From: Patescibacteria group bacterium
GTDB lineage: Bacteria > Patescibacteriota > Patescibacteriia > UBA10025 > JBIOWE01
Assembly: GCA_044868145.1 (NCBI GenBank)
Contig: JBIOWE010000006.1
Coordinates: 284,537-348,536, forward strand
Direction: 5' to 3'
Length of the DNA stretch: 64,000 nt
The notes beneath the pieces were generated by a model. It was not told the DNA's origin, searched no databases, and worked only from the letters and a program-made list of their open reading frames with translations. Numbering within the stretch: position 1 is the first letter of the stretch; every line of letters starts with the position of its first letter. Both the position numbers and the translations under genes were made by a program. This document shows positions 9,267 to 52,265 of the stretch, piece after piece.

Positions 9267-10270
9267 AGATCCTTCACGCACCATTTAACATAGCTGGCCA
9301 GGCATCAATTATTTCCAGAGCTCAAAGGAAATTAGGAATTCAGAGCGACGTAATGGTTTTTAGTCAAACCTATCTTGAGTACGAAAACGACATTATTTTA
9401 AACATTAATACGAAGCCTTTAGCCTCAAAGTTTGGGGTCGTGTTAAAAAACTTTCTCTATTGCATAAGGACGTATGACATTTTCCATTTTCACTTCGGTT
9501 CAAGCCTTTTGCCGTTTCTCATAGATATGCATATTCTTAAATTGCTTGGGAAACCAATGCTCATGCACTATTGGGGGTCGGACGTTATACAAATTGACAT
9601 TGCAAAGAAGTACACACTGCTCAGCGAGGAAGAATTGAAAGAAATCTTCAAAAGTATTCATAGCAGAAGGCGTAGAAAAAAAATTCGTAGAATCGAAAGC
9701 CTGGCTAACATGACAATAGTTGGCGATTACTCTCTTCAGCGATATTCCCCAAAGAGTATTGTCATCCGCCAGGCAATTGATTTGTCTGCATTACAATTCG
9801 TAGGAGTCCCGACAAAAGAAAATAATATCAACGTTGTTCATGCTCCAACCAACCGTAAAATAAAAGGTACGCATCATGTTATAAGCGTAATAGATGATCT
9901 CAAGAGACAAGGTTATAATATGAATTTACAAATAGTGGAAAACATGCCCAATAAAGAAGCGTTAGAGATATATAAAAAGGCCGACATCGTGATTGATGAC
10001 GTGCTGCAAGGTCCTTACGGTATTTTTGCGATTGAAAGCATGGCTTTGGGAAAACCAGTGCTCGGTTATGTAAGAAACACCGAGCAATATCCAGGATTAC
10101 CAATAATGAACACCAGCCCGAGCTCACTCAAAAACAATATCTTATCTCTTTTTAACAACCGCCCATTACGTATAACCCTCGGCAAGCAAGGTAGAGCCTA
10201 CGTCGAACGTCATCATGATAGCTTAAAGATCGCCCAGCAACTAATAGATATCTACAAAACACTATCGTAA
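9263..10270 (+). CDS. glycosyltransferase (GT-B fold, GT1/GT4-like)
   Basis: C-terminal region (FAIESMALGKPVLGY) resembles the GT-B nucleotide-sugar-binding domain. Sits in the glycan cluster. 4-nt overlap upstream. Confidence 0.5.
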   Translation: MKILHAPFNIAGQASIISRAQRKLGIQSDVMVFSQTYLEYENDIILNINTKPLASKFGVVLKNFLYCIRTYDIFHFHFGSSLLPFLIDMHILKLLGKPMLMHYWGSDVIQIDIAKKYTLLSEEELKEIFKSIHSRRRRKKIRRIESLANMTIVGDYSLQRYSPKSIVIRQAIDLSALQFVGVPTKENNINVVHAPTNRKIKGTHHVISVIDDLKRQGYNMNLQIVENMPNKEALEIYKKADIVIDDVLQGPYGIFAIESMALGKPVLGYVRNTEQYPGLPIMNTSPSSLKNNILSLFNNRPLRITLGKQGRAYVERHHDSLKIAQQLIDIYKTLS

Positions 10271-32748: not shown

Positions 32749-34593
32749 CTAGCCACGCTCCTTGAGCACTGCGAGGTACGCTTCCTGGGGAATCGTCACC
32801 TTCCCAAACAGGCGCATCCTTTTTTTGCCTTTCTTTTGCTTTTCCAACAATTTCTTTTTTCTCGTAACGTCTCCCCCATAGAGGGGCGCGGTAACGTCTT
32901 TTCGCATAGGCGAGATCCGGGCTGAGGCAATAATCTTGCCGCCAATGAGTGCCTGAATTTTTACTTCGAATTGTTGCCGAGGCAATATGTTTTTGAGCCG
33001 CTCACAAATTTTCCTGCCCGATCGCTGCGCGTTCTCTTCATATACGATGGTCGAAAGCTCTGGGACAAGTTCGTCGGCAACAAGAATGTCGAGTCGCACA
33101 ACTTGGGTAAGACGGTACTCAAAAAACTCGTAATGCAGTGATGCGTACCCTGATGTAACGCTCTTCATTGTATCATAAAAATCAACGATAATCGAGGCGA
33201 GCGGCAGCTCCGCACGAACGAGCAATCGGTCAGGATTTAAGTACTCAGTTGTTCGATAGATACCACGCCGTTCTTGAATAACATTGAGTATTTGTCCTAC
33301 AGACGTTGACGGCGAAATGATTTCGGCGTTTACCCATGGTTCTTCGATACGCTCGATCTGTGACGTTTCTGGCAACTCATGCGGATTAGAGATGAACAAT
33401 GCATCCGGCATTTTCTCTGGGGAAAGTTTTTTTCTTTTCTGAAGCGAGCGACGCCCTTGCTCGTTCAAAACGATTTTATAGGCGACGGACGGTACCGTGA
33501 GAATCACTGAAAGACCATACTCCCTGGTGAGTCGTTCTTGTACTATCTCGACGTGCAAAAGACCGAGGAAGCCACACCGAAAGCCGAAACCGAAGGCCTG
33601 CGATGAGTCGGGTTCATACACAAGGCTCGAGTCGTTGAGTTGCAGGCGCTCCATCGCCTGCCGTAGTTTCGGAAAATCATCACCTGACATACAATAGATG
33701 CCAGCAAATACCATTGGCTCAATCCGCTTATAGCCGGGAATCGGTCGGCTTGTGGGTTTGCCCGCATTCGTCATCGTATCGCCGACTCGCAAGTCCTGAA
33801 TATTTTTCAATCCGGTCACAACATATCCAATTGCCCCTGATCCCAATTCTTCTCGCGAAGAAAGTTTTGGTTTAAAGACGCCTACGTCAAGTACATCAGA
33901 TTCCTTCCCTGTTGCCATCATCTGAATCTTATCTCCCGCGGCTACCCGACCATTCATGACACGCGTGTACGCTATCACTCCTTTATAGTCATCAAACGCC
34001 GAATCAAATACGAGAGACTGCAAAGATGCGTCGTTATCCCCTCGCGGAGAAGGAACGCGTTTGATAACTTCTTGCAAAAGCGCTTCCACTCCTTGGCCTG
34101 TCTTTGCGGATACAAGCATTACGGATTCTTCTGCGACCTTAAGGAGCGTCGCGAGCTCCTGCCGAGTTTTTGCAACCTCGGCATTCTGTAAATCAATCTT
34201 GTTAATAACCGGAATGATTTGGAGATGCAACGACTGGGCAACATGCAGATGCGCAACAGTTTGTGCTTGAATACCCTGCGTGGCGTCCACGAGCAAAATT
34301 GCACCCTCACAGCAAGCAAGTGATCGCGATACTTCATAGCTAAAGTCCACGTGGCCAGGGGTATCGATAAGATTAAGCACATAACTCTGATACAACATTT
34401 GCACAGGCGCAAGCTTGATGGTAATGCCGCGCTCGCGCTCCAAATCCATTTGGTCGAGAAATTGGTCCTTCATCTCTCGCTTAGATACTGTGCCGGTAAG
34501 TTCAAGCAAACGGTCCGCGAGCGTTGACTTGCCGTGGTCGATATGGGCAATAATGCAAAAATTGCGAATCAATTGTTGCTCGTTATTTGCCAT
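32749..34593 (-). CDS. lepA: translation elongation factor 4 (LepA)
   Basis: IRNFCIIAHIDHGKSTLADRLL G-domain. DLERERGITIK. 614 aa. Full-length colinearity with LepA. Confidence 0.92.
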   Translation of the reverse strand: MANNEQQLIRNFCIIAHIDHGKSTLADRLLELTGTVSKREMKDQFLDQMDLERERGITIKLAPVQMLYQSYVLNLIDTPGHVDFSYEVSRSLACCEGAILLVDATQGIQAQTVAHLHVAQSLHLQIIPVINKIDLQNAEVAKTRQELATLLKVAEESVMLVSAKTGQGVEALLQEVIKRVPSPRGDNDASLQSLVFDSAFDDYKGVIAYTRVMNGRVAAGDKIQMMATGKESDVLDVGVFKPKLSSREELGSGAIGYVVTGLKNIQDLRVGDTMTNAGKPTSRPIPGYKRIEPMVFAGIYCMSGDDFPKLRQAMERLQLNDSSLVYEPDSSQAFGFGFRCGFLGLLHVEIVQERLTREYGLSVILTVPSVAYKIVLNEQGRRSLQKRKKLSPEKMPDALFISNPHELPETSQIERIEEPWVNAEIISPSTSVGQILNVIQERRGIYRTTEYLNPDRLLVRAELPLASIIVDFYDTMKSVTSGYASLHYEFFEYRLTQVVRLDILVADELVPELSTIVYEENAQRSGRKICERLKNILPRQQFEVKIQALIGGKIIASARISPMRKDVTAPLYGGDVTRKKKLLEKQKKGKKRMRLFGKVTIPQEAYLAVLKERG

Positions 34594-36187
34594 CAGCGTG
34601 ATTTCCGTTGATTATTTGCCGTCTTACCCTTACCAACCAATCAGTAATGATTTTGATTTCATCGCATCGTAGCAGCATGGCAAAAACAAGGTACGCGGTG
34701 ATGCCGACGACAGCAGCCACCGCTCCTTGGAGAAAGATACCAACAAACGTCTGCATATTCACTCCCTGCGCGATAACATATTTCGCCACCCAGATCACGC
34801 CCCCCATCGCGAGGGATGCGAGACTAATTTTCAGAACAGATTTGATAATTTTTGTGTCGTCCATATATCCAACTCGCTTGCGAAGAAATCCGAGTAACAG
34901 TAGCATTTGCAAGATGCTTGCAATGGAAAACGAAAGCGCAAGCCCGGTAACGGGATCCGACATAACTCGAGTTAAAATAAGCGCGCCAGTCAAATTAGCA
35001 ACAACCGAAACGCTTGCGATGAGCACCGGAGTTTTCGTGTCATGAAACGCGTAGAAGGACCTCGCGAGCAAAGGTATGACGCTTTGAGCGAACAACGACA
35101 CGGAAAAAAAGCCAAGCGTCTGGGCAGTAAGAAACGTATCTTCCCAATCGAAATTGCCGGTACCCAGAATAACGCGGACGATTTGGGCTCGCAATAAAAG
35201 GATGACCACGGAAAGCGGGATAATAAGAAACAGGATTCGACGAAAGCTCACGGAGAATTGCACGACAAACTTTTCAGTGTTCTTTTGAGCGAACGCTTCG
35301 GAAAAAATCGGAAACGAGGCTATGGCGAGCGAAACGCCGACAACGCTAATTGGAAAACTTCCCAAGTTATTCGCCAGGTTAAATACCGCGACACTGCCGA
35401 CAGCGAGCGTTGATCCGATTATTATGCTAACCATTTGTTCGATTTGACCTACCCCCAACCCAAAAGCGCGCGGAACCATCAAACGGCCAATCTTACGTAC
35501 GCCTGCGTGCGTGGAATCAAGAATGATCTTGTAACGAAACCCCAGCCGGCGAACCGCGGGTAGCTGAATCAGCACGTGTAAAATGGACCCCAACACAACA
35601 CCATAGGCGACCCCATATATTCCGTACTTTGGGGCCAACAACATAATACCGGCTATAATGCCGAGGTTATATAGAACAGGCGCAAAAGCAAAATTAACAT
35701 ATCGTTTGTACGAATTCAGCAGTCCGGTGAAAATATTTGAAATAGTAAAAAACAACACGGACAAAAGCATAATCCGCGTTAAATGGGCAGTGATCAATTG
35801 CTTGTCAGGAGAAAACCCTGGTGCAATAACTCCCGCGAGCTGCGGCGTGAACAGAAAAAAAATGCCGCCGAGCACAAGCACGCCGAGCAAGAGAATATTC
35901 AGCAATGAGTTGGCGATATGCCACGCTTCTTTGCCATTCTGTTCCCTATACTGTATGAAAACCGGAAGAAATGCCGATGACAAGGCCCCCAAAACGAGAA
36001 TGTTGACGATAAAATCTGGTATCTTGAACGCGGCGTAGTACATGTCGAGTTGGTCACCAGCACCAAATGTTGCAGCGAGTAAACGATCGCGCACAAGACC
36101 AAGCAACCGACTCACAATGGACGCTGTCGCTATAATAATTGCACCACCAGTTACGGTGGTGACGAGTTTCCGCCAAATTCTATTCCA
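34583..36187 (-). CDS. murJ: lipid II flippase MurJ (MviN)
   Basis: N-terminal SRLLGLVRDRLLAATFGAGDQLDMYYAAFKIPDF and 14-TM MOP topology. The start is set at the internal MWNRIW..; the ORF extension to 36370 is probably non-coding. The 3-prime end overlaps the lepA start by 11 nt. Confidence 0.8.
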   Translation of the reverse strand, partial: WNRIWRKLVTTVTGGAIIIATASIVSRLLGLVRDRLLAATFGAGDQLDMYYAAFKIPDFIVNILVLGALSSAFLPVFIQYREQNGKEAWHIANSLLNILLLGVLVLGGIFFLFTPQLAGVIAPGFSPDKQLITAHLTRIMLLSVLFFTISNIFTGLLNSYKRYVNFAFAPVLYNLGIIAGIMLLAPKYGIYGVAYGVVLGSILHVLIQLPAVRRLGFRYKIILDSTHAGVRKIGRLMVPRAFGLGVGQIEQMVSIIIGSTLAVGSVAVFNLANNLGSFPISVVGVSLAIASFPIFSEAFAQKNTEKFVVQFSVSFRRILFLIIPLSVVILLLRAQIVRVILGTGNFDWEDTFLTAQTLGFFSVSLFAQSVIPLLARSFYAFHDTKTPVLIASVSVVANLTGALILTRVMSDPVTGLALSFSIASILQMLLLLGFLRKRVGYMDDTKIIKSVLKISLASLAMGGVIWVAKYVIAQGVNMQTFVGIFLQGAVAAVVGITAYLVFAMLLRCDEIKIITDWLVRVRRQIINGNHADGK

Positions 36188-36614
36188 CATACGCCAGATT
36201 ATTCTAACATTTTTTTCGACTTTCCGCAAGTATGGAAGAATCATCGCGAGCTTTGGGTCTCGTGGGTTCCCAAAGCGAGCGATACAAAAGATTTTGCGAA
36301 AAGCGTCGAAAAATACTTTTTTAAAAAGGGTTTTTCGAAATAAAAAAGCTGTCAGGAAAAAACAACGCATTGACGCGAATTATTCGCATAGAATCCTGAA
36401 TGAATCAGGACGAGGAGAGAGGTTCGGTCCCCGAAGGGACATTCTATACTTATAGCTCGATCTCCGTCATTGCCATTCCTAACAGCTTTTTTGCGACAAG
36501 CTTGATGATTGAAAGGGAGCATTCCGTATCTTTGATAGACGAAACACGTTTATCGACCAAAGATACGGGGAAAGGAAGTATTATCTTTTCCTTTCCCTGA
36601 TGAATGCCCGGATA

Positions 36615-36944
36615 TCATTTTCCCATCCTGTGGTCCACCATGAATGGGAATCGATATGATTCGGCCAGTTCTTTGAGAGCCTTCAAATTCTCTGGGCAAG
36701 GCGTGGAGTTTTGCATTTGGCATACTACCACGGCATCGTCCCCATAAACCTTGAATGGCCCTGCTTCCGGCAGTTTTGGCGTGCATTCAATAAACTGTAG
36801 CAGTGCAATGAGCGAACGATATGAAGCTTCAGTAGGCGTTACTGATAATTGATCGACCGCCTTAGATTCAATACCAAGTTCAGGGATGCTGAAGGTAGCA
36901 AGAAAAACCTTCTTACGCTGCATCGCAGCAAAGTAGCATTTCAT
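36615..36944 (-). CDS. hypothetical protein (109 aa)
   Basis: Strong RBS AAGGAGGG 6 nt upstream of the ATG. No recognizable domain. Confidence 0.4.
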   Translation of the reverse strand: MKCYFAAMQRKKVFLATFSIPELGIESKAVDQLSVTPTEASYRSLIALLQFIECTPKLPEAGPFKVYGDDAVVVCQMQNSTPCPENLKALKELAESYRFPFMVDHRMGK

Positions 36945-37070
36945 TGTGACCCTCCTTTCGATGAAAGGAACTATTTACCTTAGATTCAATAGATGGTTAT
37001 AGAATCTCAGGAAAATGGGAGAGGCGTGTCATTGCATATCGCAACATCGCGCCTCTCCAAATCTGATAGC

Positions 37071-37340
37071 TTACTGCCAGTACGCTCCGTTTGTCTCATG
37101 GAGTGTTGGTGGCTTGCGCTCAACACGCAGTAATTGGTAAAAATGTTCAGGTACTTTCTCTCCTTGTTGCTCCAACGCGCGTACAATTCTCACGGCGTTA
37201 TGGTAATTTGCTTCGCTTTCTCGCAAACTTTCGCTCTCGGTGAACCGTTCGAGTTGTTCCAATAGCCTCCCTTTCGGAACCCCGCTTGCAGAAAGCTTTT
37301 TCTTGAATTTCTTGATGACTACTTCTACAAGGTTCTCCAT
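37071..37340 (-). CDS. hypothetical small helical protein (~89 aa)
   Basis: GGAGG RBS 4 nt before the ATG at 37340 (MENLVEV); the ORF could alternatively start at 37358. Hairpin terminator downstream. Conserved leader motif upstream. Confidence 0.4.
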   Translation of the reverse strand: MENLVEVVIKKFKKKLSASGVPKGRLLEQLERFTESESLRESEANYHNAVRIVRALEQQGEKVPEHFYQLLRVERKPPTLHETNGAYWQ

Positions 37341-37377
37341 AAAGCCTCCAATGTTCAATGTGCAAAGTTTCTCCCTC

Positions 37378-37419
37378 TTCTGAACCTGCCAGCTTGTGAC
37401 TACCAGGCTCGGAAGAGAA
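37378..37419 (-). promoter_or_regulatory. conserved 5-prime leader motif, copy 1 (upstream of the 37071..37340 gene)
   Basis: Shares about 80% identity over ~41 nt with copy 2 (37937..37984). The pairwise consensus on the plus strand is GAACC.G..AGCTT.TGAC.ACCAGGCTC..AAGAG. Confidence 0.5.
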
Positions 37420-37455
37420 GCGGGTTTTGGAACCTACCCGCTGGAGGTAAAAGAG

Positions 37456-37896
37456 CTACGGACTGTGGTATGCGGCAAACGGACTGTAGAAATGAACCTG
37501 TAATATCTCAATGTCTCCGGAATGGTATTTATTCATTCTCTTAAACGTGTCATTCAACCGATCAACAAAGTGTCGACGGGTCTCACTACCTTCTTTTAGG
37601 CCTTTAAACTCGTAAAGGCCGCAGAGGTCCTTAACAAAATCAAGTTCGATGTAAAGGTTTGACAATCGTGCACTTGAGGTATCCATCGCCGTTCGCAATC
37701 GGATTAACACCGGGACCTCTGCCCTGTCTTGGAATGTAACACGCATTGTGGCGAAGTATTGTGGTGAGTAGTCTTCAAACTGTACTGCTATTGTCGAACC
37801 TCGTGCAGGCAGCAAAATATAGAGCATTATTGACATCAGTCCTGACACCAATAATGTTGACATTAACATACCCAGCCAACCTGACCATTTTTTCAT
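37456..37896 (-). CDS. hypothetical membrane-anchored protein (146 aa)
   Basis: N-terminal TM helix. RBS GAGGAGG before the ATG. Conserved leader motif upstream. Confidence 0.45.
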   Translation of the reverse strand: MKKWSGWLGMLMSTLLVSGLMSIMLYILLPARGSTIAVQFEDYSPQYFATMRVTFQDRAEVPVLIRLRTAMDTSSARLSNLYIELDFVKDLCGLYEFKGLKEGSETRRHFVDRLNDTFKRMNKYHSGDIEILQVHFYSPFAAYHSP

Positions 37897-37936
37897 TGAT
37901 CCTCCTCGTTAAATTTAATGAACTTTTTTGATTCTT

Positions 37937-37984
37937 TTTTGAACCCGTTAGCTTATGACCACCAGGCTCAAAAGAGAGGAAGAG
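37937..37984 (-). promoter_or_regulatory. conserved 5-prime leader motif, copy 2 (upstream of the 37456..37896 gene)
   Basis: See copy 1. Located ~40-90 nt upstream of the start codon. Confidence 0.5.
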
Positions 37985-38080
37985 CGCAGAGTGACGTTTG
38001 AGCATACCCTGAAGGTATCCTCTCATCTGCAGATTTTTGCTATGGCTCTCCGCAATAGTCATAGCGCTCTTCCAAGAATG

Positions 38081-38143
38081 AATAAAAAAGAACAAGGCGG
38101 ATAGTTGGACGTATACTTCTCGCCCGCAAGGTGCCTTGTTCTT
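38081..38143 (-). terminator. putative intrinsic terminator after the 38167..38490 gene
   Basis: 11-bp stem AAGAACAAGGC/GCCTTGTTCTT around a long loop, followed by a T-run on the minus strand (and an A-run upstream). Confidence 0.45.
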
Positions 38144-38166
38144 TTTGATTGTAAAGTACAAACTAC

Positions 38167-38490
38167 CTAGCCTTGCGCTCGCGCCTTGAGCGGGTCTTGT
38201 GGGAAACCTCGAGCGAAGTTCTTGAGCTGAAAGGCAAACTGCTTCCGTCCGCGGTTATTCATCTGCTTAGGCTCTATAGGCAGGTATCGAAGAACCATCT
38301 TGTCCTCGCCGCTCAACTCCGTCACACTACAACCCATAAGCACTGATACAGCTACAGAAAACCCTTTGCGCAGATACAGCTCAGGGAAAACTCGCTTGCG
38401 GTACTCCCAGTCTGACTCGCCATCTTGCCTCGGAATACCAAGGCCCTCGAGGTTTCGCGTCAGGGCGTCTCCTTCATAGAAACTCGACAT
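38167..38490 (-). CDS. hypothetical protein (107 aa)
   Basis: RBS GGAGGTG before the ATG. Hairpin in the 5-prime UTR. Terminator downstream. Confidence 0.45.
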   Translation of the reverse strand: MSSFYEGDALTRNLEGLGIPRQDGESDWEYRKRVFPELYLRKGFSVAVSVLMGCSVTELSGEDKMVLRYLPIEPKQMNNRGRKQFAFQLKNFARGFPQDPLKARAQG

Positions 38491-38635
38491 TGTACACCTC
38501 CATTGATTTTCAAAGTCTCATATTATAAATCCGCTAGCATTTCTAACGAACTTGTAAATGAGGGGAACCGGAAGATATGTTGTGCATACTCCAGATTAAG
38601 GTTCCCCGATAGTATGTGATGAGTCAAATAGCTGA

Positions 38636-38833
38636 CTATTTTCCAAGATTGCTAAGAGCTATCGAAGCTAGAAAGAATGTGCAAGGAGCAATTAGCCAAT
38701 TAATTGACTCGGGCAGATTGGTTTGCCCCGTGAAGCCCCTGATTGCAGTGACCGATAGACAGCCGATCAGCAATATTATCCCAATAAACCAGAATCCCTT
38801 TGCTAAATCCTTCATCTCATCCTCCTTTGTCAA
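38636..38833 (-). CDS. hypothetical small two-TM membrane protein (59-65 aa)
   Basis: Two hydrophobic helices. A possible alternative start at the internal Met is preceded by AAGGAGG. Confidence 0.3.
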   Translation of the reverse strand: MTKEDEMKDLAKGFWFIGIILLIGCLSVTAIRGFTGQTNLPESINWLIAPCTFFLASIALSNLGK

Positions 38834-39544
38834 TGTATCCTTCCCTTCAGCCCATTATGTTGATAATAATGTGGCTCAAGGAAAGAGGGAAGGAGTGAAG
38901 GAGATTGTGCGGGTAGTACGTACATACGTTATGGTATGCGTACTGTTATAAACCGGCACGGCATCTACAGGGCCTTCCCCTCTTGAACTTGCTGATAAAG
39001 AACAGTTCGAGTAGTCAAGGACATTCGTCCTGGATAATTGCAATCTTTTTGCAAAAAGATTTTTTCATGCCCAATGGGCGCGTTCCTTTGGCAATGTTCC
39101 AAAGAAAGATCTGGAGGTGAGATGCTCGACCTAAGCCATACGGCCCTGCCGAGCGAAGAATGAATTGTAGTATACTCTTAGTTTACACCAAGAATAATTA
39201 CTTTTCATCCTTTTTATCTAACCCCTCCATATCCCACTTTGAAACAAAAAACGGATTGCTCGAGTAGAGAATCCGCCTTTTGTTAGCCGCCGGGATTTTC
39301 ATCGTCCGCGGCTCAACAATTGATTAATGCATTAAAGGCTTTTCAGCCTGCCCTTTTGTTCCTGTTCAGAGGCGCAAAAAGGCAAACCGTCTCTCTCGCT
39401 TTAAACCTTTTGATTGTTTTAAAAAACAAAATTAACAATACAGCATATACCTCTATGGTTTTCCTGTCAAGAGGGATATCCACATTGTATGGTTATTTTT
39501 GCGTTAAGCTAGCAAAAAAACATGTACATTTGAGTACAGGCACT

Positions 39545-39621
39545 TTGGGTAACCGCCAATCCTCAGATTGGCGGACCACGGTTTCCCACATTACGCCCGA
39601 TCTGAGGATCGGGTGTTACCC
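39545..39621. repeat. dual-hairpin structured element, copy A (outer stem GGGTAAC/GTTACCC; hairpin 1 CCGCCAAT-CCTCAG-ATTGGCGG; hairpin 2 CCCGATC-TGAG-GATCGGG)
   Basis: Read directly. A second copy at 51721..51787 has an identical hairpin 1, and compensatory substitutions in the outer stem and hairpin 2. Confidence 0.6.
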
Positions 39622-39630
39622 GCGAAAAAA

Positions 39631-41877
39631 CTACTGCCTTTCAATCAGTGCGGTGTATATTTGATCAGACGTGAGGTCAGCGGAAAACTTGAGCTGATTT
39701 TGAGAAGACTCCCCGCTTTGGCTCCACGCGAGCACGTATTGAGAGGGCAGTCGAAGGAACGAAACCAAGCCTGTCGGCGCAGAACCAGGCTGGCGTTGCA
39801 CGAGAAGAGAATAGGTATCAGTCGGGTGCGTCAAAAAACCCGTTCGTAAGCTAAACGGAAGTTTATAGGAAACTTCGACTGTTGCCTGCTGACCAGGACG
39901 CACAACAACCCAGTTGCCGAACACCGTTTTGCCAAATTCATGTGTTACGCGGGTTTGCGTTCGTTCATCGAGTGAAGGATTTTTCTCAATTGCCAAGAGA
40001 TCTTCGTCTTGCCCCGCATCAAGGTCAGGTTCTTTAAACCTGGATTGCGGAATGACGCTAAATCCTTGAGCGTCAATAAGCTCGCTGCCTTCGGGAACGT
40101 AGAATCGAACGTAGGAGACGTTATCAACGCCCGCAAAAGCATCATTCTTCGAACCGTTATGCACGCGTGTCAATTTAACTGTATCGATAATGGAGCCATC
40201 GTCAAGAACGCGAGCTTCATGGAGAATCAATTGTTGCATTGACGCGTCCGTTTTGCCGCCGCCAATGTTCGTCGTCACCACGGAAAGAAAATCTTTTTCA
40301 GCGGGCAGAATCGCCCCGGACCAACGAAGGTCCTCGATGCGCTGCTGCGTTTCTTGATTTTTGCTGAACAGCAGGAGGTCGCGCTGATCAAAGGAGGTGC
40401 TCAAAGCTCCTAACAAATCAACCAACTTATCAGGACTAACGGAGAAGAGCTTATTTAAAAGCACAGGCAGAAGATCAGCGATGAACGCTTTTGGCTCGCC
40501 ACTCTCTCGATGAGCGTCCGAATAGGATTGTGCGTACGCAACAAAATTTGATGCACTGATGACAGTGCCGTATGGGTCGCGCATATCAATGGACCCGGTT
40601 ACGTCAAGGAGGCGCTCAATAAATGTTGGTGTAAGCGCGATAACACCGTCAACGGACGGTCCGCCGCTTTTTTCGTAAAACCACATTACTTTTTTCGCGC
40701 TCGTAGGAAAATCCGGGAACCAATTCGCGTCTTGGATGTTCCAATACGGATTCACGAGGTGGAGCGGATTCGGGGACACAATCTTTTCAGGAAATTGGCC
40801 GGCGATGTCATAACTTCCGCCGCGTGGCACCTCAATCCTCTCTACTGCGCCCTGGTAAACGTCAATGAGCGCGAGGGAGCCGATAAACCCGCCCGTAGGC
40901 CGAAGCTCACGATTATTTTCAAAAAGCACCAAGTAACGTTGCTGCGTATGTGCGCCAAGCACCGAAAGAAGGGCCTGGGAAGCCTTTTCCAAATAACTGA
41001 AATTGTCCCGAAGGGCTGGCAGTACGCCGGCAAGCGTCTGGAACGTTTCGCGACTAGACTCCGGAATATCTTCAGGGCGAACCAGTGAAAGGTTATCGAT
41101 CGTCACGCGCACGTAATGTTCCAGCAGAGGCAAACGTTCGGTCAAAACCGAAAAGTCCCGTGTTACGGTTTCGTCGGAACCCGGGACGCGCGTATCAATG
41201 GCTTGCAACAAGCTCGCCAATTCCTCCCCTGCTTTACTCATATACTCTCCGGCGGTCAACAAATGCTCTGCGCTACGCGATTCGCTGGAAGCCGCCTTTA
41301 CGATATCAGTTGTGAGCCCGCCGAAGCTGCGGAATTCTTCTTGGGCTGCGACGAAGCCGTTCTTCGCCTGCTCAAAGGTTGATGAGGCTTTATCGTACTG
41401 CTGGGAGGCAATATACTGGGAGGCATCAATGAATTGACCGTATGCATCCGTGCTGGCGCCGAGTACCTTACCTTTCACTTCTTTGGCTTTTTGAATTGCC
41501 GAAACGACAAAAAACGGCACAAGCAATGCGCATAAGAGCAAAACAAACACCAGAAGATGTTTGAACCGGGGCGTAGACAACTTCCATGAAATGTCAGAAT
41601 GATTTTCTTTTCGTTTTTGACCTCCGCGCGGCCGCCGGTGCACAGGCGCGTCTTCTGCCGGCACGGTAAGGTGATGAATGGCTTTCCCCACTGTTTGCGT
41701 GCCCGCGCTAAAAAAGTTTTCCAACGCTGACTGGCGCACTGTCTGCTTCGGCTGCGAAGATTTGTCAGTCATTTTGCGAAGATTCAAAACATTTTCCTCG
41801 GGGACGCCAATCCCGGCGCGCGGCTTTTGAATACGCACGCTCCGTGAACCGTTTGTTTTGTGATTAGTCCGATTCAT
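39631..41877 (-). CDS. DUF4012-domain extracytoplasmic protein, membrane-anchored (cell-envelope polysaccharide locus protein)
   Basis: N-terminal basic region plus one TM helix. Core motif QRYLVLFENNRELRPTGGFIGSLALIDV, characteristic of DUF4012. 748 aa. Confidence 0.6.
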   Translation of the reverse strand: MNRTNHKTNGSRSVRIQKPRAGIGVPEENVLNLRKMTDKSSQPKQTVRQSALENFFSAGTQTVGKAIHHLTVPAEDAPVHRRPRGGQKRKENHSDISWKLSTPRFKHLLVFVLLLCALLVPFFVVSAIQKAKEVKGKVLGASTDAYGQFIDASQYIASQQYDKASSTFEQAKNGFVAAQEEFRSFGGLTTDIVKAASSESRSAEHLLTAGEYMSKAGEELASLLQAIDTRVPGSDETVTRDFSVLTERLPLLEHYVRVTIDNLSLVRPEDIPESSRETFQTLAGVLPALRDNFSYLEKASQALLSVLGAHTQQRYLVLFENNRELRPTGGFIGSLALIDVYQGAVERIEVPRGGSYDIAGQFPEKIVSPNPLHLVNPYWNIQDANWFPDFPTSAKKVMWFYEKSGGPSVDGVIALTPTFIERLLDVTGSIDMRDPYGTVISASNFVAYAQSYSDAHRESGEPKAFIADLLPVLLNKLFSVSPDKLVDLLGALSTSFDQRDLLLFSKNQETQQRIEDLRWSGAILPAEKDFLSVVTTNIGGGKTDASMQQLILHEARVLDDGSIIDTVKLTRVHNGSKNDAFAGVDNVSYVRFYVPEGSELIDAQGFSVIPQSRFKEPDLDAGQDEDLLAIEKNPSLDERTQTRVTHEFGKTVFGNWVVVRPGQQATVEVSYKLPFSLRTGFLTHPTDTYSLLVQRQPGSAPTGLVSFLRLPSQYVLAWSQSGESSQNQLKFSADLTSDQIYTALIERQ

Positions 41878-47344: not shown

Positions 47345-47753
47345 TGCCAAGGTAAGCCTGTAAGCCGAATTCTGTTCTCCTACTTGCAAGCAAGCGGAAG
47401 AGATAATTATCTCTCTGGGACCGCCATTGCTGGCGGCCTCTAGCGCCCGTTCGGGCTTGCACCGGAGAGGGTTTTCCACGCTCCTATCTCGCGATAGGTG
47501 CGCGTGAGCTCTTACCTCACGATTTCGCCATTGCCTGATCCCACCTCGTCGGCGGGCCATTGGCTGTGTATTTTCTGTTGCACTTTCCCTGGGCTTCAAT
47601 GCTTTACAGTTCTCGAGAGATCCGCAAAGCACCTACTCCCGGTCGCCGTTAGCGACTCTCCACTTCTCGCCTCGTCGGCGAGGGTGTTCGGACTTTCCTC
47701 CCCACCTTCCCCTTGCGGAAAAAGGCGAAGCAATTATCCAACTTACCTTGGCA
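47345..47753 (-). ncRNA. rnpB: RNase P RNA, bacterial type A
   Basis: The minus-strand sequence contains GGGGAGGAAAGUCCGAACACC (P4 5-prime strand), AGUGCAACAGAAAA, GGGAUCAGGCAAUGGCGAAAUCGUGAGGUAAGAGCUCACGCGCACC and ACAGAAUUCGGCUUA (P4 3-prime strand). P1 forms by pairing of CCAAGGUAAG with CUUACCUUGG. About 408 nt. Confidence 0.85.
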
Positions 47754-48480: not shown

Positions 48481-48897
48481 TTACCGAGAACTCATCTGCT
48501 TGTCAAGCTCCTTATTCACGAGTTTGTCGGCTTCTTTATTTTTTTCTCGAGGAATCACACGGAAATCAACGCGCCTGAATCCAATCATCATATTCCAGCA
48601 TTTGACGAATAAGGAACCGAGCTCAACGTTTTTTATCTTGGCCTGACGCGAGAGCTGTGTCGCGATAAGCTCGCTGTCCACATAAAAATCAAGTTCACTT
48701 GCTTTCAAGCGCTTCGCCTGCTCCAGCCCAAATAAAACGGCATGATATTCAGCTTGGTTATTCGTCGCCTCGCCGATGTATTTTGAATAAGAGCCAACAA
48801 GAGTATTGCCATTCCAAATTACTACGCCAACGGCAGCTGGGCCGGGGTTTCCACGTGCGCCACCGTCAGTATAAATCTCAAGTTTTTTATTTTCCAT
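48481..48897 (-). CDS. rnhA: ribonuclease HI
   Basis: IYTDGGARGNPGPAA, NNQAEYHAVLFGL, and the DSELI and EKNKEAD catalytic motifs. 138 aa. Confidence 0.85.
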   Translation of the reverse strand: MENKKLEIYTDGGARGNPGPAAVGVVIWNGNTLVGSYSKYIGEATNNQAEYHAVLFGLEQAKRLKASELDFYVDSELIATQLSRQAKIKNVELGSLFVKCWNMMIGFRRVDFRVIPREKNKEADKLVNKELDKQMSSR

Positions 48898-49025: not shown

Positions 49026-49409
49026 ATGTACGAACAATTCGAACGCATGGTATTTTTCGCCCTTGCTGCGATGTTTTTGTTGTTTGGAGGCATTTTTGCT
49101 TTCTGGCACGACAACCTGGCGAGCGTTACGTCAATAATGACGGGCATAAGCGTTTTGTTCTATTATGCGGCCATTCAAAGGCGACACCATGTTATTATCC
49201 GATTCTTCTTCTGTTGTGGATGGGCAGCCTTTCACGCTATCGCAATGATCTCGGCATTGTCCAAGACGCCAAACATCCGAGCAACAATATGGTTTACGCT
49301 CTTGGGATTGCTTATGCCTATAGCGGGTTTAATCTTTGGACATCGGCAATCTAAAAACATGGCAAATAGTATTTTGCCCCTCAAACAAAACCAAAAGCTG
49401 GATGAATAA
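49026..49409 (+). CDS. hypothetical membrane protein (4 TM helices, 127 aa)
   Basis: Strong RBS. Four hydrophobic helices. Terminator overlapping the stop. Confidence 0.5.
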   Translation: MYEQFERMVFFALAAMFLLFGGIFAFWHDNLASVTSIMTGISVLFYYAAIQRRHHVIIRFFFCCGWAAFHAIAMISALSKTPNIRATIWFTLLGLLMPIAGLIFGHRQSKNMANSILPLKQNQKLDE

Positions 49410-49428
49410 TATCTCCAGCTTTTTTATT
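49394..49428 (+). terminator. intrinsic terminator
   Basis: AGCTGGA..TCCAGCT stem followed by TTTTTTATTTT. Confidence 0.6.
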
Positions 49429-49491
49429 TTACTCCTTGACAAGACAACGAACGCGTGCTAGGCTAGACTATTCAAAACAAAAGGAGGAAAG

Positions 49492-49926
49492 TTGAAAAAA
49501 TATGTTCTTTACACATTAACTGTACTGATGTTTGTTCTGCTCATTGTTAGTGCCCTGAACTTACCGCACAAATATTCGGAGTACGAACACACATTAAGAA
49601 ACATACCCTTTTACTTTTGGGGTGACCAAGAAGGGGCATGGACATCGCTACAATACACTCGGGAAGAACTCCTTGTTCCTATTGGCGGCAACAAAGAAGT
49701 GCTGGTATGTATTTTTGAACGTTCTGGCAAAGGCAACGAATTGTTGTATGTGGTCATTCCGGGATATATCAGTGGATCTGGTCACAAAAAAGAGAGTAAC
49801 AACTTTGTTTCCAGAGTTCAGATCATCCACAGCTATCATAAAATCTTCATAGAGCCGCTGATTATCAGATATCTCAAAGCCCACCCACAGTACTATACCG
49901 AAGGTATGCCGATTAACTATTGGTAA
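49492..49926 (+). CDS. hypothetical secreted/membrane-anchored protein (144 aa)
   Basis: RBS AAGGAGGA. TTG start. N-terminal hydrophobic signal/anchor. Confidence 0.45.
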   Translation: MKKYVLYTLTVLMFVLLIVSALNLPHKYSEYEHTLRNIPFYFWGDQEGAWTSLQYTREELLVPIGGNKEVLVCIFERSGKGNELLYVVIPGYISGSGHKKESNNFVSRVQIIHSYHKIFIEPLIIRYLKAHPQYYTEGMPINYW

Positions 49927-49940
49927 TGCCGAGGTTCGAA

Positions 49941-49971
49941 AGCTGAGACGAAATATTCTCAGCTTTTTTTA
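49941..49971 (+). terminator. intrinsic terminator
   Basis: AGCTGAGA..TCTCAGCT stem followed by TTTTTTT. It abuts the recJ stop on the opposite strand. Confidence 0.65.
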
Positions 49972-51711
49972 TTCGTTTGATGCGTGCTTTAAGTCCTTCA
50001 CTTTGAGCTGCAGCTGTCGTTCGCTATTCCATTCGTTGACGGAAACTTCAAACACAATATCCACTTTGTCGCCGACGTTGAGCTTGTCGCCCCAGGAGTT
50101 CGCAAAACCGAAAGCGATAAGCTTATGCGGTTGCCCCGTCCCTTGCTCCACAAGTAATCGCAGATGCTTCCCATCGTTTCCAACGCGGTCTATGCTCGTT
50201 ACCGTCAAGCCCTCGGTTAAGAGGGTTGGTCGAGGATTTTTTTCACCAAATGGCTCAAGCTTTTCCAGCGTTTCCCAGATGTCCCAATGGATATCGGCGA
50301 GTTTGACCTGCGCGTCAATCATCATGCGAGGAACAAGGTCCTCCTTACCGAGCTGTTTATGCGCGTATTGTTCAAGACTCTCCTGAAAAACTGAAAGATT
50401 GCTTTTTGCCATGCTAAACCCGCATGCCTGGCTATGGCCTCCATATTTTTCAAAAAGCTTTTCGTGATGTACGAGCGCTTGCGTGATGTCGAACGCCGGA
50501 ATGCTGCGTCCTGACGCGACGATTGTTTTGTCTTTCAACGTCATAGCAAACGCGGGTCGATAATAATGGTTTGCCAGCTTGCCTGCAATCAATCCGAGTA
50601 ATCCGGCAGGCCAGTCTTTTTGAAACGCTGTAACCATTCGGATATCCGGGGGGAGCTCGCCGATTTGTTTTTTTGCCTGCTCAACGACCTTCTCCGTCAT
50701 TGTCTGGCGTTCCTGGTTCTTCTTATTGAGCTCCTGGCTGATTTGTTCAGCTGCCAATTCATCCTGAGTTTCTAAGAGCTCAAATGCCGTGTTCGCGTGG
50801 TCCATCCGGCCAGCAGCGTTCAAGCGCGGTGCAATCTGGAATCCGATGGAATAGGTGTCGATTCGCTCTGGCCGTATCCCGGCAAGGTCAATGAGTTTTT
50901 GCAAGCCCACTCTGCGGGTTTTCCGCAGGACAACAAGGCCATACTTCACGAGGGTGCGGTTTTCGCCGACGAGTCGCATCATGTCTGCAACAGTACTGAT
51001 AGCGACCAAGTCGAGCAGCCATTTTTCATATCCATCAAGTAAACGCTTCCCTTTGTCCTCCACGCATAACGCTTGCACAAGTTTATACGCCACACCGCCT
51101 GCTGCGAGATATTTAAACGGATATGTCTCACGCTTGAACTGCGGATTTAAAATCGCGTAAGCGGCAGGTTTCGTCGTTGGCTCTTCGTGATGGTCCGTTA
51201 CAATTACATCCATTCCCTTCTCATTCGCTAGCGCGATTTCAGGGGCGTTGCTTGTGCCACAGTCACAGGTGATAATCAATTTGGTTCCGCCTTTGGCGAT
51301 TGTCGTGACGGAATTCATATTCAGCCCGTACCCCTCGCGTTCGCGATGCGGCAAATACACCTCAACGGAATTGGCGCCAAGCTTTTTTAACGTTTCAACG
51401 AGCATCACTGATGCGCACACGCCGTCCGCGTCGTAATCCCCGTGCACCGTGATCTTCTCTTTTTTTTGAACGGCTTCGAAGATTCTCTTGACCGCTTTTT
51501 TCATGTCCACGAATAAAAAAGGGTCATGGATATCCTGACCGTAATCCGGATTCAAAAACTCGTCAATGGCTTTTTGATCGCGTATGTTGCGATTGAACAG
51601 CAACTGGAGAATAATCGGATCTATTTCTGGGAATTGCGCTTGAAATGCCGCTGGAACTTTCTTTGCAACAAGCCATTTACGAGTCATAGTTGGATGTATT
51701 GTATCATACAT
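49969..51711 (-). CDS. recJ: single-stranded-DNA-specific exonuclease RecJ
   Basis: DHH family motifs (VHGDYDADGVCAS, IVTDHHE), DHHA1 region and a C-terminal OB-fold. The start is set at the internal MYDTIHPT, because the longest ORF start overlaps the structured element at 51721. Confidence 0.85.
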   Translation of the reverse strand: MYDTIHPTMTRKWLVAKKVPAAFQAQFPEIDPIILQLLFNRNIRDQKAIDEFLNPDYGQDIHDPFLFVDMKKAVKRIFEAVQKKEKITVHGDYDADGVCASVMLVETLKKLGANSVEVYLPHREREGYGLNMNSVTTIAKGGTKLIITCDCGTSNAPEIALANEKGMDVIVTDHHEEPTTKPAAYAILNPQFKRETYPFKYLAAGGVAYKLVQALCVEDKGKRLLDGYEKWLLDLVAISTVADMMRLVGENRTLVKYGLVVLRKTRRVGLQKLIDLAGIRPERIDTYSIGFQIAPRLNAAGRMDHANTAFELLETQDELAAEQISQELNKKNQERQTMTEKVVEQAKKQIGELPPDIRMVTAFQKDWPAGLLGLIAGKLANHYYRPAFAMTLKDKTIVASGRSIPAFDITQALVHHEKLFEKYGGHSQACGFSMAKSNLSVFQESLEQYAHKQLGKEDLVPRMMIDAQVKLADIHWDIWETLEKLEPFGEKNPRPTLLTEGLTVTSIDRVGNDGKHLRLLVEQGTGQPHKLIAFGFANSWGDKLNVGDKVDIVFEVSVNEWNSERQLQLKVKDLKHASNE

Positions 51712-51720
51712 CTCACCACA

Positions 51721-51787
51721 TTGGGTAGGCGCCAATCCTCAGATTGGCGGCCCACATCGGCCGGATCTGAGGATCCGGCCTACCCAA
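51721..51787. repeat. dual-hairpin structured element, copy B (outer stem TTGGGTAGG/CCTACCCAA; hairpin 1 CGCCAAT-CCTCAG-ATTGGCG; hairpin 2 GCCGGATC-TGAG-GATCCGGC)
   Basis: Read directly. It is a paralog of copy A at 39545..39621. Confidence 0.6.
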
Positions 51788-51832
51788 GGGATGATAAGCA
51801 AGGAGTCGCCTCCATGCCAGCTTTCTTTATTA

Positions 51833-51925
51833 TGGGTAGTCTCGGGTCCCCCGCCCGCTTCGCGTTGCGAAGCAAGGCGGGCGGGCTTGACCCGAGGCGA
51901 GGTCAAGGGACCTCGCCTACCCGCT
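51833..51925. repeat. GC-rich nested palindromic element (GGGTAG..CTACCC outer; CTCGGGTC..GACCCGAG; CCCGCCCGC..GCGGGCGGG; GGCGAGGT..ACCTCGCC)
   Basis: Read directly. GC content is far above the local average. It shares the CCCGCCCG/CGGGCGGG stem with the element at 57296..57346. Confidence 0.5.
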
Positions 51926-51928
51926 GGA

Positions 51929-51957
51929 TTGACAGCAAGCGATGCACCATGTACTGT
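51929..51957 (+). promoter_or_regulatory. putative sigma70-type promoter of the 51987 gene
   Basis: TTGACA-17 nt-TACTGT, upstream of the RBS AAGGAGGTG. Confidence 0.35.
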
Positions 51958-51986
51958 AGGTACTATCAAAACAAAAAGGAGGTGCC

Positions 51987-52265
51987 ATGAGACCTGTTCG
52001 CTTTGACCTTTTAATTCACGTAGAGCGGAAGGAGGAGCTTCAAAAAGTAGTTGAATTTCCGGCATTCGGCTATACAGTATCCATTGTAAGAGGAAATGAC
52101 GAGGCTTTCCTGGATCAAGAAAAAAGAACCATTCAAATTGGCATTACGGAAAAAACGGTAAATGAGCTGCCAGGTGTTTTAAAAGTACAATTTCATAATC
52201 TATCTGATGGTTCTCTAAAATCGGGGGTTTACGTGCCAAGGGGTGGTAATGAATCAGGAACGTAA
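51987..52265 (+). CDS. hypothetical small protein (92 aa), possibly with a P-II/GlnB-like ferredoxin fold
   Basis: Strong RBS, and a terminator immediately downstream. The alternating hydrophobic pattern is weakly reminiscent of the P-II fold, but this is not secure. Confidence 0.45.
   Translation: MRPVRFDLLIHVERKEELQKVVEFPAFGYTVSIVRGNDEAFLDQEKRTIQIGITEKTVNELPGVLKVQFHNLSDGSLKSGVYVPRGGNESGT

Follow-up and report, generated by a model that had tools for sequence, protein, structure and literature searches.

In a Patescibacteria group bacterium, the gap between murJ (34583-36370) and a DUF4012 gene (39631-41877) holds an island of five minus-strand open reading frames (ORFs) of 59-146 amino acids (aa), termed A to E, which are best explained, with a probability of roughly 0.55, as genuine, separately translated small genes in a lineage-specific hypervariable accessory slot of an envelope locus (positions refer to the analyzed 64,000-nucleotide (nt) stretch of contig JBIOWE010000006.1, hereafter the window). 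The genomes of Patescibacteria, or candidate phyla radiation (CPR) bacteria, are tiny, and these organisms presumably rely on interactions with hosts at the cell surface; the slot is a plausible place both for host-interaction or surface-variation factors and to see how reduced genomes gain new genes. Flexible slots filled with small orphan genes are a familiar phenomenon; new are the slot itself, the corrected gene models, the small family of C and two uncatalogued RNA elements, termed a and b. An initial annotation of this DNA had reported five such ORFs, near-consensus Shine-Dalgarno (SD) sequences before all of them, N-terminal transmembrane (TM) helices in two of the proteins and a composition matching that of the host; all five ORFs are present, and the other three points were borne out as well, the last with a qualification given below. 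The ORFs are:

ORF A, 36615-36944, minus strand: 109 aa, soluble, near neutral, orphan; also called in the source assembly.
ORF B, 37071-37340, minus strand: 89 aa, basic, helical, soluble, orphan; called in its 89-aa form in the source assembly.
ORF C, 37456-37896, minus strand: 146 aa, N-terminal TM anchor followed by an alpha/beta domain of about 110 aa; has a homolog.
ORF D, 38167-38490, minus strand: 107 aa, basic, soluble, orphan; also called in the source assembly.
ORF E, 38636-38815, minus strand: 59 aa, small hydrophobic membrane protein; less certain than the other four.

The start signals of A-E are real and highly non-random. GGAGG stands 4-6 nt before each ATG, namely as AAGGAGGG with a spacing of 5 nt in A, TGGAGGC with 4 nt in B, GAGGAGGA with 4 nt in C, TGGAGGT with 6 nt in D and AAGGAGGA with 5 nt in E. 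When this was formalized as a pattern (GGAGG, 3-9 nt, ATG and an ORF of 55 codons or more), five matches were obtained on the minus strand of the island and none on its plus strand, whereas shuffling the island 5000 times with dinucleotides preserved produced 0.018 matches on average and two at most. Over the whole window, A-E hold the only matches on the minus strand, and two further ones lie on the plus strand (at 49026 and 51987). An SD-like motif was found upstream of just 6 of the 47 long ORFs of the window, so that the island genes stand out by their start signals; the core genes are mostly without an SD, and the slot genes use far stronger ribosome-binding sites than most of them. Most of these core genes are also tightly packed or overlapping. 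The small plus-strand ORFs at 49026-49409, 49492-49926 and 51987-52265 form a second group that is led by the consensus AAGGAGG, and this group (49026-52265) has the only other strong SD-led starts of the window. Strong SDs in the window thus appear to be reserved for stand-alone small genes. The predicted probability that the SD is unpaired was 0.00-0.12 for A, B, C and E versus 0.20-0.28 for the other SD-led genes, and a scan with consensus promoters revealed no strong sigma-70 site before the individual genes A-E.

Coding potential was assessed with a hexamer score trained on 43 long genes of the window, for which reference pieces of 300 nt scored 0.21 +/- 0.12 when taken from true genes and -0.38 +/- 0.18 in wrong frames. 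The island ORFs scored -0.05 (A), 0.02 (B), 0.01 (C), 0.02 (D) and -0.19 (E). As C, which is conserved, scores no better than A, B and D, the low scores reflect atypical codon usage more than a lack of coding function, and A-D are probably genes, while E is plausibly one. This is where the match in composition needs its qualification: the guanine-plus-cytosine (GC) content of the island is 0.457 versus 0.451 for the 64-kb window, hexamer and codon usage, however, are atypical.

Upstream TTG codons offer alternative starts for B (at 37358, giving 95 aa) and E (at 38833, giving 65 aa). The TM segment of C spans residues 7-33; residues 3-30 of E are hydrophobic and TM-like, and a second, weaker hydrophobic stretch can be seen by eye. 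No paralogy was found among A-E or elsewhere in the window. The gene calls of the source assembly lack E and split the region of C into an overlapping 76-aa gene and a 123-aa truncation; the 146-aa form is supported over these split calls, since its homolog P0007 (described below) aligns from Met1 of C. The corrected gene models, with a 146-aa C and a 59-aa E, cast doubt on the overlapping calls. Two automatic small-gene calls, at 36400-36600 (plus strand) and 37775-38005 (minus strand), are probably spurious; the doubtful calls in gaps of this kind coincide in part with structured elements, with hairpins or with genes that have better support.

The five ORFs are separated by spacers of 126, 115, 270 and 145 nt, each of which contains stable hairpins. 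Terminator-like hairpins had been claimed after two of the ORFs; hairpins are indeed present, but this count was too low, as a stable hairpin lies 3' of each of the five:

38562-38607, minus strand: hairpin after E.
38081-38150, minus strand: intrinsic terminator after D, with a stem of 14 base pairs (bp) between an A-run and a T-run.
37934-37977, minus strand: second copy of repeat D1, 80% identical, upstream of C.
37419-37442 and 37375-37418, minus strand: two hairpins in the 3' flank of C, the latter being repeat D1.
37018-37058, minus strand: hairpin after B.
36524-36598, minus strand: two adjacent hairpins after A, with a folding z-score of -5.3.

The intergenic spacers of the island fold with z-scores of -2.2 to -5.7. 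D1 is a 44-nt hairpin repeat on both sides of C, and this internal pair alone stood out in a search for direct repeats; no sequence is common to the hairpins that follow A, B, D and E, and none but the D1 pair recurs.

Protein-level conservation was found for C. An exhaustive phmmer search with C against 1.84 billion representatives returned one real homolog, P0007 (138 aa), which is 37% identical, covers residues 6-138 of C (E = 5.7e-19) and shares 52 invariant alignment columns with it, from M1 to F136. The other rows of this search were the truncated call of C itself and two translations of tandem repeats (P0008 and P0009), which were rejected as homologs. Both proteins have an N-terminal TM helix and a domain of about 110 aa that is marked by the motifs EVPVLI-LR-MD-ARLSNL and NKYH-G-EIL-HF, and together they constitute an unnamed family of which two clusters are known. 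The gene for P0007 is located in a related locus, L015, directly downstream of DUF4012 and elements a and b, and tblastn of C against this locus gave 37% identity over 131 aa. Both hairpins 3' of C are kept after the homolog in L015 (3255-3310), with compensatory changes; by eye, this non-coding flank is about two-thirds identical and appears better conserved than the protein itself (37%). An AlphaFold2 (AF2) model of C from the two-sequence alignment had the order TM, beta-alpha-beta-alpha-alpha-beta, and no PDB entry was matched by this model at E < 1 in a Foldseek search; a match to the periplasmic domain of FliL, at an E-value of about 2, was not considered meaningful. The prepilin motif (N_methyl, G-F/M-T-L-x-E) is absent from C and E by inspection, and PF07963 was not matched.

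As judged by sequence searches, A, B, D and E are true orphans with no detectable relative. None of the five proteins has a significant match in Pfam, NCBIfam, PHROGs or PADLOC, and PDB sequences searched with A, B, C and D likewise gave no significant match. No relatives were found when IMG/VR contigs were scanned with these four, and a concatenated A-E query against 50,697 phage records and 72,556 plasmids retrieved nothing at E <= 0.1. With A alone, a word-indexed search of 5.8 billion proteins returned the self match only; the concatenated A-E query against this index missed exact self matches as well as P0007 and was disregarded. Against all relative loci, tblastn gave no match for A, B, D or E, the D-like matches in L008, L010 and L011 (E > 0.5, within glycosyltransferase genes) being judged to be due to chance.

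For two of the orphans, a distant likeness was followed up. In A, a motif TxxEAxY...VYGDDxVVxQ was noticed by eye, and hhalign places this motif on the same region of RNase H, but the identification of A as a truncated RNase H was rejected as unsupported: against a three-sequence RNase H profile, hhalign gave E = 0.3 and a probability of 0.2%, BLASTP against the clade RNase H gave no alignment, phmmer against the PDB found no RNase H, and by inspection A lacks the first catalytic Asp of the DEDD set. The comparator was the genuine RNase HI of the window:

rnhA, 48481-48897, minus strand: 138 aa, 68% identical to the homolog in L016.

In B, residues 29-83 align with residues 221-277 of WhiA in a phmmer search against the PDB, with a marginal E-value of 0.03; neither Pfam nor NCBIfam gave a WhiA match, B stops short of the WhiA recognition helix and no helix-turn-helix continuation exists in any downstream frame. 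A WhiA fragment may hence be considered a weak lead for B.

The position of the island is fixed across the clade, while its content is variable. The order is Bac_transf, GT4, a gene of about 205 aa, GT4, GT4, DUF4012, the gap, murJ, lepA and bPH_2, and ten further loci show GT4-GT4-DUF4012, a gap of 0.5 to 4 kb, and murJ-lepA, as far as each contig reaches. Synteny together with variable content was seen across L002, L015, L016/17, L018, L019, L020 and L026, with MurJ 61-68% identical in L016/17, L018, L019 and L026 (of which L026 has the most similar MurJ) and identities of about 40-44% for DUF4012 in relative loci; the nearest DUF4012 protein outside the species is 42% identical. The gap holds different small ORFs in each locus:

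L002: a gap of about 0.5 kb that has no long ORF in gene orientation.
L015: the C homolog and, after it, three small membrane proteins.
L016: genes of 82 or 106 aa, 115 aa (FHA domain) and 168 aa.
L018: genes of 78, 77 and 163 aa.
L019: genes of 67 aa and 181 aa, two pilin-like N_methyl proteins and a gene of 125 aa.
L026: 2.8 kb, with one 78-aa call on the plus strand, one 56-aa call on the minus strand and four copies of element b.

An all-against-all comparison of the gap ORFs found nothing shared beyond C/P0007 and a pair in L008 and L009. Given this variable content among syntenic relatives, the five-ORF island is the filling by this species of a clade-wide hypervariable slot, which agrees with the earlier proposal of an accessory cassette within a housekeeping and glycan locus: relatives keep DUF4012 and murJ-lepA and have different small ORFs, or almost none, in between. 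The slot resembles the hypervariable ORFan islets that are found at fixed positions in its syntenic core flanks, its species-specific content of short genes without homologs, and its atypical codon and hexamer usage. It differs from them in that no recombinase, tRNA or flanking repeats were found here, that the GC content is identical to that of the host, and that the slot has its own conserved non-coding elements. These elements, at 39089-39470 upstream of the island, define the slot; neither they nor the orphan status of four of the proteins had been noted before.

Elements a and b are the most novel part of the findings:

Element a, about 39242-39494, minus strand: promoter, transcript of about 190 nt and intrinsic terminator (about 39245-39290).
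Element b, 39089-39249, minus strand: structured RNA of about 160 nt with a long closing stem and a three-way junction, scoring 108.9 bits with covariance model R1.

Both are absent from Rfam: no match to Rfam 15 at E <= 1 was obtained in the window (36300-39700) or over the element copies in L009, L015, L018, L019 and L020. Element a was present as a single copy, 30-130 nt past the DUF4012 stop codon, in all eight loci examined. Its promoter in the window is sigma-70-like, with TTGACA at 39470, a gap of 17 nt and TATGCT ending at 39442, and the conserved form reads TGTGGATAT..CTTGACA-17-GGTATAT. The transcript carries a conserved CUCUUUGAGGAGAGAG hairpin and a strong terminator; element a is a candidate small RNA or leader.

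Element b follows directly downstream of element a. All copies fold to the same shape, at -59 to -87 kcal/mol, in which a closing stem of about 20 bp pairs a 5' purine strand containing GGAGG with a 3' strand of CCUCC followed by pyrimidines, and the junction bears a long arm capped by CUUGGU-NNNN-ACUAAG and a second hairpin. In an alignment of 11 copies, base pairing extends to 83% of the cells, and compensatory change is seen in 36 of 55 pairs; the covariation score is 0.46, compared with 0.11-0.15 when the partners are slid, and none of 500 shuffles reached the observed values. Model R1 gave 24 plus-strand matches at E <= 0.01 in 11 loci (the window and L008, L009, L015, L016, L018, L019, L020, L024, L025 and L026), all in gene orientation and within the slot, with one to four per locus. 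With its strong covariation and this model at hand, element b is searchable across CPR genomes. The window contains exactly one copy when searched with filters off, which overlaps none of A-E; no extra element b was found in 36300-39700 with filters off, and D1 was rejected as a further copy. Two pattern matches in viral contigs were not confirmed by the covariance model. In roughly half of the copies, an SD and start codon come 11-48 nt after the end of the element, and the genes preceded in this way, among them those for a CPBP-type protein and the C homolog and a pilin-like gene, are mutually unrelated; the copy of the window lies 274 nt from the ATG of E. Both elements appear to be vertically conserved with the flanking genes.

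In this clade, then, the gap opens with element a, followed by one to four copies of element b and then by species-specific small ORFs. The cargo of the window comprises C, a single-pass membrane-anchored alpha/beta protein with one homolog at the same position elsewhere, E, a tiny hydrophobic membrane protein, and the small soluble proteins A, B and D. Transcription of A-E may start at the conserved upstream promoter with read-through or at weak local promoters, and translation may be gated by local structures that are predicted to mask the SDs of four genes (A, B, C and E). We infer that A-E are accessory factors that evolve fast or were recently acquired. Judging from their glycan-gene neighbors, from the membrane anchors in C and E, and from the occurrence of pilin-like, FHA and small membrane proteins in the slots of relatives, they may have a role in or close to the envelope or the cell surface.

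Several observations weigh against reading the island as five genuine genes with a surface-related role. For A-D, the hexamer scores rank with the lowest 3% of true-gene pieces and with the highest 1-3% of wrong-frame pieces, and E, for which the source assembly has no call, scores like non-coding sequence. The reality of A, B, D and E rests on the start-site statistics together with intermediate coding scores, the large protein collections were searched individually with A and C only, and the AF2 models are of low confidence, with a predicted local distance difference test (pLDDT) score of 59 for C and 40 for A. The contrast in SD occlusion is modest, and the envelope or surface role draws on genomic context. 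In L018, a 77-aa gene call (9538-9771) overlaps a copy of element b (9609-9776) and is probably spurious.

The latter overlap would fit if some or most of the ORFs were not genes at all but, like the SD-like purine runs, by-products of a stretch that is non-coding and consists of structured RNAs and terminators, which is considered unlikely. Such a view would accommodate the strongly structured intergenic spacers, the purine-rich GGAGG strands that also form stems in elements a and b, and the low score of E, which is exceeded by that of an antisense ORF at 38616-38951 (0.04). It is hard to reconcile, however, with correctly spaced GGAGG-ATG starts before ORFs of 59-146 codons, of which there are five on one strand only where 0.018 would be expected, with the conservation of C at the protein level from residue 1, and with the single copy of element b in the window that spares all five ORFs. 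The initial annotation had held that ORFs lacking conservation entirely would be spurious; four of the five are indeed unconserved, but the start-site statistics argue against spuriousness.

Newly born or very young genes would equally lack relatives. Under this explanation, which has a small but appreciable chance of being correct, the gap would be mainly structured non-coding RNA and most ORFs would have arisen in it recently and acquired strong SDs, with little or no established function. The absence of detectable homologs of A, B, D and E even from relatives with 61-68% identical MurJ is in line with this, as are the intermediate coding scores, the GC content shared with the host and the slot of L026, in which four copies of element b are accompanied by few small gene calls. 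On the other hand, five consensus SD-ATG starts, each with a terminator-like hairpin, resemble a mature gene organization, and C is demonstrably conserved, yet has a coding score no better than those of A, B and D. Moreover, the orphan status may reflect sparse sampling of the lineage, given that the nearest DUF4012 protein is only 42% identical.

Variable content in a fixed slot could also indicate a mobile-element remnant or a horizontally acquired cargo island (phage, plasmid or integrative element) at a hotspot, which is judged quite unlikely. The atypical hexamer usage and the strong SDs, both unlike those of the core genes, would fit such an origin, and the assemblies of relatives often break just after DUF4012, several contigs stopping less than about 1.5 kb beyond it. 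The contig ends in L015, L020, L023, L024 and L025 lie 35 nt to a few kb after DUF4012 and are consistent with repeats, such as copies of element b, or with strain-level heterogeneity in the slot. Against a mobile origin, there is no tRNA gene in the window, PHROG matches were noise only, and no integrase or recombinase domain was found in the five proteins. In the direct-repeat search nothing but the internal D1 pair stood out, no similarity to phage records, plasmids or IMG/VR contigs was detected, the GC content equals that of the host, and the boundary elements a and b appear to be conserved vertically with the flanking genes.

A related and very doubtful possibility is that element b is a portable module, either an RNA leader or an attC-like strand-specific recombination site, of a gene-capture or gene-expression platform in this CPR clade. 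Element b would then duplicate and be placed before newly acquired or newly born small genes, and A-E would be the present cargo of an integron-like system without a recognizable integrase. Like integron cassette arrays and clusters of attC sites lacking integron-integrases (CALINs), the island consists of co-oriented small ORFs, mostly without assigned function, amid folded repeat elements, and in relatives element b recurs between small ORFs. Unlike in such arrays, the hairpins between A-E are mutually unrelated save for the D1 pair. Element b itself forms a three-way junction in which internal sequence is conserved and one G-U pair is invariant, and it scores far better on the gene strand, so that it is more likely an RNA. 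It also usually lies upstream of an ORF, while attC lies downstream. Repeats of the attC type were not found 3' of each ORF, the R''/R' core motifs not having been scanned formally, and an intI gene was not identified, although domain annotation did not extend one by one to the remaining large ORFs of the window.

Structured cis-regulatory 5' leaders provide another comparison for element b, which shares with them the gene orientation, a close position relative to the next SD and start codon (11-48 nt, for about half of the copies), strong covariation and an anti-SD-like CCUCC in the 3' closing strand. It departs from them in that the downstream genes are mutually unrelated, which is unusual for a ligand-sensing riboswitch, that several copies, including that of the window, are without a close downstream gene, and that no Rfam family matches it.

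The toxin/antitoxin, secreted-effector or phage-defense roles that had been suggested for the island are not favored by any evidence, as no such domains and no tight bicistronic pairs were found, and a toxin-antitoxin, abortive-infection or other anti-phage defense cassette is regarded as highly improbable. The proteins are small, mostly basic (A being near neutral) and without assigned function, and the region is variable, as defense islands and type II toxin-antitoxin loci are. Nevertheless, no PADLOC-DB v2 family was matched by any of A-E even at E <= 1, and for the type II domains (PIN, RelE, MazF, HipA and DNA-binding antitoxin) Pfam, NCBIfam and PADLOC gave noise only at this threshold. 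The genes are set apart by hairpin-bearing spacers instead of being overlapping or tightly coupled, and in contrast to type II systems there is no bicistronic coupling, recognizable toxin or antitoxin domain or conserved pairing. Conserved co-occurrence of the five genes, which the initial annotation had proposed to look for, was not seen in the loci compared, where C alone recurs, by itself, in L015. By these comparisons the island matches no catalogued toxin-antitoxin pair, defense system or prophage, in keeping with the earlier statement that it is not recognized as any catalogued system.

Two further features of the surrounding locus were observed. A long-hairpin repeat of about 75 nt, which was not found in the loci of relatives, has two copies in the window (39545-39625 and 51720-51795, both on the minus strand), one of them directly 3' of the DUF4012 stop codon; its core is GAUCCUCAGAUC ... 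AUCUGAGGAUU, the outer stem differs between the copies in a compensatory manner, and the z-scores are -5.3 and -7.1. An RNase P RNA (bacterial class A, 205 bits) is located at 47345-47749 on the minus strand, upstream of the glycan gene cluster, and the same arrangement is found in L018 (433-932), L019 (877-1414) and L020 (60-574), so that this placement, common to the relatives, extends the synteny block.

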